Below, piece after piece: positions 1,682 to 4,423 of a DNA stretch of 11,361 bases. Position 1 is the stretch's first letter; each line of letters opens with the position of its first letter. The DNA comes from a virus (taxonomy: Duplodnaviria > Heunggongvirae > Uroviricota > Caudoviricetes), in IMG/VR virus record IMGVR_UViG_3300027747_001395, one strand, 5' to 3'. The position numbers and the translations under genes are program-made. Below the pieces are notes generated by a model. The model was not told the DNA's origin. It saw only the letters and a program-made list of their open reading frames with translations, and did no database searches.

Positions 1682-1917
1682 ATAGGAAGTATAAATACAC
1701 TTTCTAAATGGAATCTTTTGGTTTCATTACTACTCTTACACAGCTTCACGTCCTTATGTGGCAAGAAAGCGGATAATCCTAGGATTATCCACCGACAAAA
1801 ACACTAATGACCAGCATTCCTATGTAAGAGGGGAATGGATATAGAAGATACAAAAGTTAAGTAAGTACTCTTCATATAGCGATTAAGTCGTCTAGTCATT
1901 AGAACTATGAGACGACT
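1682..1917 (+). ncRNA. Candidate structured 5' leader / cis-regulatory RNA
   Basis: Complementary segments found by eye: 1771-1778/1783-1790, 1815-1821/1831-1837, 1839-1851/1865-1877, 1804-1814/1892-1902, 1733-1740/1823-1830, 1886-1893/1910-1917. No family recognised. Confidence 0.45.
1690..1697 (+). promoter_or_regulatory. T4-type late (gp55) promoter
   Basis: Exact TATAAATA in an intergenic position upstream of the cell-wall hydrolase. Confidence 0.75.
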
Positions 1918-2807: not shown

Positions 2808-2871
2808 TTGGTTCTACCTTCTAGGTAGTTTCTGTTTTGCTCTAGGTACAATTCTTAATATGGTGAAGTAA
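2800..2871 (+). CDS. Unannotated 23-aa hydrophobic microprotein (MSNWFYLLGSFCFALGTILNMVK)
   Basis: ATG 2800 overlaps the end of the previous ORF, and TAA 2869-2871 overlaps the gp59 ATG (TAATG). It exactly fills the gap and encodes one TM-length hydrophobic stretch. Confidence 0.55.
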   Translation: MSNWFYLLGSFCFALGTILNMVK

Positions 2872-3446
2872 TGCAACCTTTCGACGCTTACAGAACATAT
2901 CTGGCTATGAAGAATCACTTCAGCCAGAAAGGATACGATTATTTCAAATATCAAGGGAAGGTAAATGTAGGACAGAGTTCATTTGATACTCGTAAAGATA
3001 AGTACCAGTTTCATAAACTCTCCAAACATAAAGACCCAGAACAATACTTGGTAGCAAACTTCATCAGTCGTGATGTAAAGTGGATTGGTGATCTACTTGA
3101 TGAAACAGCCGAAAAGACCTACACAGATTGGCTCAAGAGACAGCAATCACTTACATATAACTTTCAACAAGAACTAAACAATCTGGAATCAGACTTTCAG
3201 AACAATCTTATAGTAAAAGATGGACAGCATCCACTCTTACTAAAGCTATACCGACAAGGGATTGTCAGTATTGAGACTATGGTTATTCTTAATAGCCTGG
3301 TCAACTTCTTCCCATATTGGAACAGAGAAATAACTGATACAGTTCTCTGGCCAGAACTATATAACAAGATTCAAAAATACAAACCATTCGTAGATTTTGA
3401 CTTTGAGAAATGTAAAAAGATTCTAAGTTCTGCGTTTGATATCTGA
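2871..3446 (+). CDS. gp59: Helicase loader (T4 gp59 homolog)
   Basis: FDAY.TYLAMK.HF....YDY.KY.GK......F..RKDKY.F.KL, WIGDL, W.KR.QSL.Y.F, HP.LLK, ISIET..IL, KY.PF. Confidence 0.92.
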   Translation: MQPFDAYRTYLAMKNHFSQKGYDYFKYQGKVNVGQSSFDTRKDKYQFHKLSKHKDPEQYLVANFISRDVKWIGDLLDETAEKTYTDWLKRQQSLTYNFQQELNNLESDFQNNLIVKDGQHPLLLKLYRQGIVSIETMVILNSLVNFFPYWNREITDTVLWPELYNKIQKYKPFVDFDFEKCKKILSSAFDI

Positions 3447-3523: not shown

Positions 3524-4423
3524 ATGTCGTTTGCAAATCTTAAGCGCAATTCGAGTTCCAACTTTGAGAAACTCACAAAAGAGCTAACTAAGCTCAATTC
3601 CAATAACTACGACAACAACGAGATTGAAAATCTCTGGAAGCCTGCTACAGATAAGGTAGGTAATGGTTACGCAGTTATTAGATTTCTCCCAGCACCAGAA
3701 GGTGAAGATGTTCCATTCGTTCGTATTTGGGATCACGGATTTCAAGGACCAGGCGGTTGGTATATTGAGCGCTCTCTAACCACATTCGGTGAAAATGATC
3801 CGATTGGTGAGCATAATTCACAGCTCTGGAATACAGGTCTAGACGCAGACAAGGAAACTGTTCGTAAACAGAAGCGCCGCCTCTCCTACTACTCAAACGT
3901 CTACATTGTTAAGGATCCTGCTAACCCAGAAAATGAAGGAAAGGTTTTCCTTTTCAAGTACGGTAAGAAGATCTTTGATAAGTTAAATGATGTGATGAAT
4001 CCTTCAGAAGCTTTTGCAGATGAAAAGCCTGTTAATCCATTTGATCTATGGACTGGCGCTAACTTCAAGCTCAAGATTCGTAAGCTTGAAGGTTATCCAA
4101 ATTATGATAAGTCTGAATTTGATACACCTGCACCATTGAGTGAAGATGATGATGAACTAGAGGCAATCTACAAGAAGGAACATTCCCTTCAGGCTCTTCT
4201 AGATCGTAAGAACTTTAAGACTTATGATGAACTCAAGATCAAGCTTGATAAAGCACTTGGTAGATCTTCTACTAGTGCTCCTGCAAAGAACCGTGCTCCT
4301 GCTGAAGAAGCTCCTGCCTGGGAACCTAAGTCCGCTTCGGCCCCTAAGCTTGCCGAAACAAGCTCTGCTGATGATGACGATGACCTTGAATTCTTCCGAG
4401 GTTTGGTAGATGAAGAAGATTAA
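3524..4423 (+). CDS. gp32: Single-stranded DNA-binding protein (T4 gp32 homolog)
   Basis: GNGYAVIRFLP, W.HGFQGPGGWYIE.SLTT, KR...YYSNVYIVKDP.NPENEGKVFL.KYGKKIFDK, PFD.W.GANFKLK, YPNYDKSEF, acidic tail DDDDDLEFF. RBS AAAGGA. Confidence 0.97.
   Translation: MSFANLKRNSSSNFEKLTKELTKLNSNNYDNNEIENLWKPATDKVGNGYAVIRFLPAPEGEDVPFVRIWDHGFQGPGGWYIERSLTTFGENDPIGEHNSQLWNTGLDADKETVRKQKRRLSYYSNVYIVKDPANPENEGKVFLFKYGKKIFDKLNDVMNPSEAFADEKPVNPFDLWTGANFKLKIRKLEGYPNYDKSEFDTPAPLSEDDDELEAIYKKEHSLQALLDRKNFKTYDELKIKLDKALGRSSTSAPAKNRAPAEEAPAWEPKSASAPKLAETSSADDDDDLEFFRGLVDEED

Follow-up and report, generated by a model that had tools for sequence, protein, structure and literature searches.

Control of the lysis enzyme in T4-type phages is, in the textbook case, exerted by a single hairpin that is bypassed by the late promoter. 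Translational riboswitches which combine a pseudoknotted aptamer with a platform that sequesters the Shine-Dalgarno (SD) sequence are known as well, for example the SAM-II/SAM-V and preQ1 types, and in Firmicutes and Actinobacteria the ydaO/yuaA riboswitch for cyclic di-AMP (c-di-AMP) is frequently located ahead of genes for cell-wall hydrolases. To our knowledge, few structured sensor RNAs have been described from virulent phages, and we know of none that controls the lysis enzyme of a T4-type phage. In the leader of T4 gene e (lysozyme) the late promoter is situated within the 5′ strand of one simple hairpin, so that late transcripts escape the hairpin, and the leaders of soc, 49 and I-TevI are similar (McPheeters et al., 1986; reviewed in PMC3014915). 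Structured sensor RNAs in a phage lysis module have a precedent in the cyclic di-GMP (c-di-GMP)-I riboswitches of phiCD119-like C. difficile prophages (PMC3649979). We identified a structured leader RNA in front of a SleB-like cell-wall hydrolase gene on a DNA segment of 11,361 nucleotides (nt) from an uncultured T4-like phage (IMG/VR record IMGVR_UViG_3300027747_001395, Caudoviricetes; the whole segment is referred to as the window). The leader shares with that of T4 gene e the type of phage, a lysis-enzyme gene, a nearby late promoter (TATAAATA) and a helix predicted to hide the SD sequence and the start codon. Unlike in gene e, the late promoter here precedes the whole 200-nt domain and both sequestering strands. 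Comparison of the window with related phages shows a conserved, pseudoknotted leader, predicted to be driven by the late promoter, that is fixed ahead of the hydrolase gene. We lean towards the view that this leader, which belongs to a previously undescribed family, acts in cis as a riboswitch-like translational switch on the late mRNA of the lysis enzyme.

The leader was not recognized as a member of any known RNA family. A search of the whole window with the 4227 covariance models of Rfam 15 at gathering thresholds gave no matches, and at E ≤ 10 the region 1600-1980 gave two chance matches only, both far below threshold and on the opposite strand. Two typical members of the family (L097 and L146), searched over their whole length at E ≤ 5, showed nothing over the leader. 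BLASTN searches with the window, the leader and a typical member against 50,697 GenBank phage records gave no match, and full-text literature searches returned no description of the leader RNA. Its closest parallels are functional in nature, namely the pseudoknotted translational riboswitches, the leader of T4 lysozyme and the c-di-GMP-I riboswitches of phiCD119-like prophages. Similar to the SAM-II/SAM-V and preQ1-type riboswitches, the leader has a conserved domain in the 5′ untranslated region (5′ UTR), a covarying pseudoknot, invariant junctions and one strand that is shared by the folded domain and by a helix covering the SD and start codon. It differs from these riboswitches in showing no Rfam similarity, in being far larger (seven helices over 220-300 nt) and in being confined to one uncultured T4-like lineage. 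The ydaO/yuaA riboswitch is likewise a large pseudoknotted leader upstream of a gene for a muralytic enzyme, but its model (RF00379) did not match and its conserved strings and helix layout are different. The preliminary description of the window, made from its sequence alone, had mentioned c-di-GMP as a candidate ligand. This suggestion found no backing, as neither the c-di-GMP-I nor the c-di-GMP-II model of Rfam matched even at E ≤ 10; the RNA is thus unrelated to that of the phiCD119-like prophages, from which it also differs in host range and phage type. Judged by architecture, the autogenous operator of T4 gene 32, in which a small H-type pseudoknot precedes an unstructured A/U-rich tract coated by gp32, also appears to be of another type: the RNA described here has seven helices and contains no long unstructured tract.

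To define the family, two pattern scans of viral contigs, one metagenome scan and one scan of GTDB genomes were carried out, and matches were confirmed with an nhmmer profile. Alignments made with nhmmer and MAFFT were used in place of a full-length covariance model. The first search pattern, GGGGAATGGAT..AGAAGAT, was rejected, as it returned only loci that were already known together with chance matches in coding sequence. The nhmmer searches yielded 164 loci on viral and metagenome contigs, representing 89 distinct full-length sequences. A gene encoding a Hydrolase_2 protein is located directly downstream and on the same strand in 150/150 loci with enough flanking sequence, and the gene order RNA-hydrolase-gp33-gp59-gp32 is found in almost all loci. 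The late-promoter sequence TATAAATA, or TAAATA, is present at most 60 nt upstream of a conserved AGCTTCA block in 48 of the 51 distinct homologs. Conservation of the leader exceeds that of the hydrolase protein. Among the IMG/VR relatives, nucleotide identity of the leader is 81-86% where the amino acid identity of the hydrolase is 77%, and a 111-nt core of the leader is 73% identical even where the hydrolase is 44% identical. Second copies of the leader were not found in five long records, each of which contains one copy. In 56 other Hydrolase_2 loci (L008-L063) nhmmer detected no homologs of the leader; those T4-like contigs among them that share the gene order have another leader after TATAAATA, which is shorter (about 130 nt). 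The element is therefore confined to one sub-lineage.

The region 1651-1940 of the window has a predicted folding energy of -67.2 kcal/mol compared to -49.1 ± 4.0 kcal/mol for dinucleotide-shuffled controls (z = -4.48), and none of 200 shuffles was as stable, in agreement with the dense structure that had been noticed in this leader. By reading the sequence directly, all five pairings proposed in the preliminary description were located: a start-occluding hairpin formed by AGTCGTCT (1886-1893) and AGACGACT (1910-1917) ahead of the ATG at 1918, a competing helix formed by CTAATGACCAG (1804-1814) and CTAGTCATTAG (1892-1902) with 10 of 11 positions paired, two hairpins enclosed by this helix (1815-1837 and 1839-1877), and a pseudoknot between TGTAAGAG (1823-1830) and CTCTTACA (1733-1740). 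Conservation and covariation in related phages, on which that description had made its proposal depend, were both found. In alignment A4, which consists of 55 sequences with less than 93% identity, 53 pairs in nine helices are paired in 96.2% of the cells, compared to 42-53% after displacement of the 3′ partners by 1-3 columns. For 34 pairs changes were observed on both sides, a number that was not reached in any of 500 column shuffles (13.4 ± 2.1). A smaller alignment gave the same structural picture. About 60 positions are invariant or near-invariant in the columns of alignments A3 and A4, and many of these are unpaired. The G-U pairs in two of the helices (P4 and P5, see below) fit the plus strand only. 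The covariation recorded in the alignments shows that the RNA folds into a conserved multi-helix domain, which consists of P1, P2, a variable P3, P4 enclosing P5 and P6, and an optional P7, connected by long single-stranded junctions that hardly vary. Judged by the same comparison, the competing helix (P4), both enclosed hairpins (P5 and P6) and the pseudoknot, all of which are conserved with covariation in the relatives, are real.

All elements of the domain lie on the plus strand of the window. The P1 hairpin is formed by AAUGGAAUC (1707-1715) and GGUUUCAUU (1720-1728) and has GGAGG/CCUCC in most relatives; in A4, five of its five column pairs changed on both sides and 93.5% of the cells are paired. 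The pseudoknot connects CUCUUAC (1733-1739) to GUAAGAG (1824-1830) in the loop of P5 through 7 base pairs (bp), with a predicted energy of -11.6 kcal/mol in the window. It is paired in 99.7% of the A4 cells with five of seven pairs compensatory, and it occurs in four compensatory versions: CUCUUAC/GUAAGAG, CCAUUAC/GUAAUGG, CUAUCAC/GUGAUAG (L270) and UCUCUAC/GUAGAGA (L343). P2 (1742-1770) is a stem with an internal loop and strands at 1743-1752 and 1760-1770. Its sequence, AGCUUCA.GUC followed by a loop of 4-7 nt and GGC(U)AAGAAAGC, is the most conserved and a nearly invariant block; the P2 pairing (95-96% of cells paired) shows almost no covariation and is therefore only a predicted one. P3 (GGAUAAUC at 1771-1778 and GAUUAUCC at 1783-1790) varies from 12 to 51 nt and its sequences are unrelated, yet a clean hairpin was found in every member examined, with three of four basal pairs compensatory and 99.5% of the A4 cells paired. 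P3 is followed by an unpaired A-rich junction (1791-1803, ACCGACAAAAACA, consensus CACCGACGAAAACA), the columns of which are invariant or near-invariant in both A3 and A4 and which may provide tertiary contacts or a ligand pocket.

The closing helix P4 (1804-1814 with CUAGUCAUUAG at 1892-1902) has a predicted energy of -11.1 kcal/mol in the window; six of its ten pairs are compensatory in A4 and 96.1% of the cells are paired. Within P4, the P5 hairpin is formed by CAUUCCU (1815-1821) and GGGAAUG (1831-1837) (-9.8 kcal/mol in the window; 99.7% of cells paired, four of seven pairs compensatory), and the P6 hairpin by the strands 1839-1851 and 1865-1877 (-8.4 kcal/mol in the window; 92-93% of cells paired, seven of eight core pairs and three of three outer pairs compensatory). 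The 5′ strand of P6 (AUAGAAGAUAC) resembles a ribosome-binding site, and its 3′ strand (GUACUCUUCAUAU) is the anti-SD strand in most relatives. P6 is followed by the junction AUAGC (1876-1880), which represents conserved columns. Between P6 and the 3′ strand of P4 most relatives contain a further hairpin, P7, which the window lacks. The 5′ strand of the sequestering hairpin (AGUCGUCU, 1886-1893) overlaps the 3′ strand of P4 by 2 nt and pairs with 1910-1917, so that the 3′ strand of P4 (1892-1902) lies in the loop of this hairpin. The SD-AUG stretch (1909-1920) consists of a weak SD sequence, GAGA (1909-1912), the hairpin strand (1910-1917) and the AUG (1918-1920).

A T4-type late promoter with the sequence TATAAATA was found by direct reading at 1690-1697, just upstream of P1, and agrees with the T4 late-promoter consensus (PMC3014915). 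Its position immediately 5′ of the first hairpin suggests that the structured RNA is the 5′ leader of a late transcript, the start of which is expected about 6-8 nt past the promoter, near 1703-1705. The preliminary description had placed the leader at 1700-1917; the leader exists, and its beginning had to be revised, since the late promoter lies upstream of 1700. The promoter is located about 190 nt upstream of the sequestering strand at 1886-1893, and in all relatives it is upstream of the 3′ strand of P6. A sigma-70-like promoter (TTGACA at 1647-1652, a spacing of 17 nt and TATAAC at 1670-1675), which overlaps the stop codon of the preceding NADAR-domain gene, is present about 40 nt 5′ of the late promoter and is kept in L001, L002 and L262. 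It was missed in a simple promoter scan because its -10 hexamer ends in C.

In the window, the best partner of the SD-AUG stretch is the 1886-1893 strand, and the hairpin with 1910-1917 has a predicted energy of -12.8 kcal/mol (z = -1.68). The start-occluding hairpin of the preliminary description is therefore present in the window, but it does not hold for the family in general. The closest relatives, L001/L087 and L002/L075, do not have it (AGAAAGC), and outside the window it is retained only in L095, through wobble changes (AGUUGUCU/AGAUGACU). As read from these alignments, the hairpin is a lineage-specific version of a sequestering helix. For 40 members, the best duplex was determined between two regions, one extending between P5 and the 3′ strand of P4 and the other from the end of the 3′ strand of P4 to AUG+6. 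The mean z-score of this duplex relative to shuffles was -1.76; values below -1 were obtained for 72% of the members and values below -2 for 42%. On the upstream side, the partner in the majority of members comprises the 3′ portion of the P6 loop together with the 3′ strand of P6 and the next junction (consensus CAUUUUGUAUCUUCUCAUAG), and the downstream partner is AAGAGGAUACAAAUG, often extending into the first codons. Against the whole leader as a target, the SD duplex was not better than in shuffles, the target being too long. The pseudoknot strand CUCUUAC, which is complementary to UAAGAGG, was considered as an anti-SD sequence and rejected, as members with CCAUUAC retain the same SD.

The two partners of the duplex covary. 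Cognate duplexes had an average energy of -13.5 kcal/mol versus -10.7 kcal/mol for non-cognate combinations, and a permutation test gave p < 2e-5 for 18 representatives with less than 80% identity and p = 0.01 for seven representatives with less than 70% identity. Both sides of the helix were changed in L203 (upstream GCCCUAA, SD-AUG strand UUAGGGU), L145 (UAUCUUUGUAU and AUACGAGGAUA), L121 (CUUCUUAGUA and UACUAAGAGG) and L270 (UCUUCGUG and CAUGAAGA). In every version, the sequestering helix brackets the 3′ strand of P4 and uses either the 3′ strand of P6 or the segment adjoining the 3′ strand of P4, indicating that it competes with the folded domain. The two states of the window are nearly iso-energetic, with -50.2 kcal/mol when P4 is forced and -52.7 kcal/mol when the hairpin is forced, the pseudoknot not being counted. 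In the late transcript of the window, the SD-AUG stretch is predicted to be unpaired with a mean probability of 0.32. An expression platform, in which mutually exclusive pairing covers the SD-AUG stretch, is supported by these energy-based tests and, given the weak covariation by alignment columns (see below), is probable rather than proven. The idea of a cis-regulatory, riboswitch-like RNA that gates a muralytic enzyme, as put forward in the preliminary description, is upheld in substance by comparative evidence: the core elements covary, the hydrolase gene is always 3′ of the RNA, and the SD-AUG stretch covaries with a strand that is needed for the folded domain. The gating itself we infer.

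Positions 1698-1917 of the window are one copy of a leader-RNA family of about 220-300 nt, which according to the model that we propose would be transcribed from the T4-type late promoter as the 5′ UTR of the mRNA for the SleB-like hydrolase, a secreted or membrane-anchored enzyme. In the ON state the domain would be folded, with P6 and P4 holding their own 3′ strands, and the SD and AUG, 8-15 nt past P4, would be free. In the OFF state of most members, the stretch from the SD to the AUG would pair with the 3′ strand of P6 and the adjoining junction; in the window and a small number of others, its partner would be the segment immediately 5′ of the 3′ strand of P4 (1886-1893/1910-1917). This OFF helix would bracket the 3′ strand of P4 and block ribosome entry, and the switch may serve in the timing or dosing of the lysis enzyme late in infection. 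We regard the leader as representing a new family of RNAs whose functional kind, that of cis-regulatory leaders resembling riboswitches, is known. The evidence is strong for the structure and moderate for the two-state translational switch in cis, which we deduce from the competing helices. The most likely trigger would be a bound small molecule or ion, which would make the leader a riboswitch; this is favored because of the many invariant unpaired nucleotides and the pseudoknotted core. Many invariant unpaired nucleotides are typical of ligand-binding aptamers. Also as in riboswitches, a structured domain supported by covariation and a constant position in the 5′ UTR were found, the latter as an inherited association within one lineage. 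Going one step further, the leader could tentatively be seen as a new, phage-only riboswitch class, in which a pseudoknotted aptamer of about 200 nt would sense a small molecule derived from the host or from the infection, such as a nucleotide messenger, a precursor of the cell wall or a metabolite reflecting the energy state.

RNAalifold predicted an additional helix, in which columns 32-37 of A3 pair with columns 182-188 (about 1725-1730 with 1833-1839 in the window) and extend the pseudoknot into a longer helix. It joins the 3′ side of P1 (UCCAUU) to the 3′ side of P5 (GGAUGGA), would exclude both P1 and P5, and shows wobble changes only. This helix may belong to an alternative OFF fold, or nested folding may have produced it as an artefact.

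Several observations weigh against a riboswitch-like switch. All members belong to one syntenic phage lineage, so the association with the hydrolase gene was inherited and not repeatedly acquired. There is one copy per genome and no second regulated gene that would hint at a ligand, and the different, shorter leader in phages with the same gene order indicates that the gene as such can do without the element. When scored by alignment columns, the sequestering helix shows weak covariation; it is 82.5% paired and its score was reached by 18 of 500 shuffles. A first cognate test with a narrower anti-SD region was marginal (p = 0.046), and the SD-AUG complementarity is largely one between two conserved strings, one purine-rich and the other pyrimidine-rich. 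P2 and the junctions barely vary and are thus uninformative about pairing. Finally, nested-fold thermodynamics cannot model the pseudoknot, which makes the predicted balance between the states a rough one.

Part of these observations would also agree with a leader that works without a ligand, either as a fixed fold that stabilizes the late mRNA or sets translation efficiency, or as a kinetic folding timer, with the ON fold arising first as the RNA is transcribed and giving way to the sequestered state later on. The SD-AUG stretch is predicted to be mostly paired at equilibrium (mean unpaired probability 0.29) and the sensor domain is transcribed first; the single copy per genome and the differences in the sequestering helix among clades would fit as well. 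The approximately 60 invariant or near-invariant positions, many of which are unpaired, and the covarying pseudoknot, however, far exceed what a stabilizer or timer would need, and a short leader suffices in related phages, so that we consider a ligand-free leader unlikely, though worth keeping in mind.

The conserved unpaired strings that speak for an aptamer could also form a protein-binding surface, and the leader would then be an operator in which either fold is stabilized by a bound phage or host protein. Candidates would include the hydrolase itself, late regulators, ribosomal proteins and RNA chaperones. T4-type phages do repress translation through RNA operators, as known for gp32 (with a pseudoknotted leader), RegA and gp43 (PMC3014915). 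No candidate binding protein was found to covary or co-occur with the RNA beyond general synteny, and the size and the conservation of the junctions are closer to those of metabolite aptamers than to those of the short T4 operators, which makes a protein operator rather improbable.

An RNA with a function independent of the hydrolase, being either a stable non-coding RNA obtained by processing of the transcript at its 5′ end or a self-cleaving ribozyme, would be in keeping with size and complexity, which are within the range of ribozymes and stable non-coding RNAs, and with a lineage that is rich in non-coding RNAs and has genes similar to transfer-messenger RNA (tmRNA) nearby. The strict adjacency to the hydrolase gene, the lack of a terminator between the RNA and the AUG, the covariation of the 3′ part with the SD-AUG stretch and the lack of a match to any known ribozyme model all argue against it, and we regard such an independent role as quite improbable. 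Discrimination by transcript length as in T4 gene e, with 5′-extended transcripts from read-through or early transcription silent and late ones active, would fit the sigma-70-like promoter about 40 nt upstream of the late promoter that is kept in three relatives and has its precedent in T4 lysozyme (PMC3014915), but was rejected as very improbable, since the late promoter lies upstream of both sequestering strands and late transcripts would thus contain the inhibitory pairing, an extension of 100 nt at the 5′ end does not reduce the thermodynamically predicted accessibility of the SD-AUG stretch (0.29 for late versus 0.33 for extended transcripts, n = 35; late higher than long in only 8/35), and the conserved multi-helix core would be left unexplained.

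The at least 89 distinct sequences, the approximately 60 invariant or near-invariant positions and the four compensatory versions of the pseudoknot make the family a ready candidate for ligand screening and structure determination. The identity of the trigger would show which signal the phage reads before it commits to lysis. The family also indicates that viral metagenomes still contain large, well-conserved RNA families that are missing from Rfam.

The leader lies in a non-coding gap of 267 nt (1651-1917) between a NADAR-domain gene (1156-1650) and the Hydrolase_2 gene (1918-2361). The NADAR-domain gene is preceded by a vWA-domain gene (188-856) and a small open reading frame (ORF) (869-1156), and the Hydrolase_2 gene is followed by the genes for the late-transcription co-activator gp33 (2365-2613), gp59 (2871-3446) and gp32 (3524-4423), all on the plus strand. 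The Hydrolase_2 (SleB-like) cell-wall hydrolase consists of 147 amino acids (Pfam PF07486, E = 1.4e-22), matches PHROG endolysin families and has a signal or membrane segment at its N-terminus; it is a putative endolysin. Among cultured phages, gp32 has its closest relatives in cyanomyoviruses, with about 54% identity, and the closest hydrolases reach at most 43% identity.

An ORF of 22 codons (1709-1777, MESFGF...), which shares its sequence with P1, the pseudoknot strand and P2, lacks an SD, is absent from the relatives and is very likely not a gene. A hidden small protein in the leader was rejected, because indels are not multiples of three and this ORF is not conserved. No tRNA or tmRNA genes were detected in the window by ARAGORN. 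A terminator-like hairpin (GCAACAATCCTTGTTGC, 1942-1958) followed by ATTTTTT (T-run to 1968) is located within the signal-peptide codons of the hydrolase, 25 nt past the AUG; L087 keeps the stem and not the T-run.

Among the GTDB genomes there was a single true match, L203, on a 201,532-bp contig of a metagenome-assembled genome (MAG) of an uncultured Cellvibrionaceae. Besides the leader and the hydrolase, gp33, gp59 and gp32 are found on this contig, which is about as large as a T4-like genome and therefore probably represents a phage genome that was placed in a bacterial MAG by binning. The Cellvibrionaceae binning is at best a weak hint about the host.

In L041, L046, L054 and L056, T4-like contigs that share the order hydrolase-gp33-gp59-gp32, TATAAATA is followed by a conserved leader of another kind (AGCTTTTCAGGAAAAG...) in the approximately 130 nt upstream of the hydrolase. 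This leader, which has a 10-bp hairpin at its end, immediately 5′ of the SD, could represent a second leader type. In several relatives, sub-threshold matches to models of two-piece (alpha/permuted) tmRNAs (RF01849; 39 bits, E = 7e-9) were observed 350-600 nt upstream of the leader. These are located at L097:1821-2044 on the minus strand and at L146:1-151 on the plus strand, and matches were also found upstream of the hydrolase in L031 and L035. The match includes the tag-coding part and the CCA-ending acceptor part.

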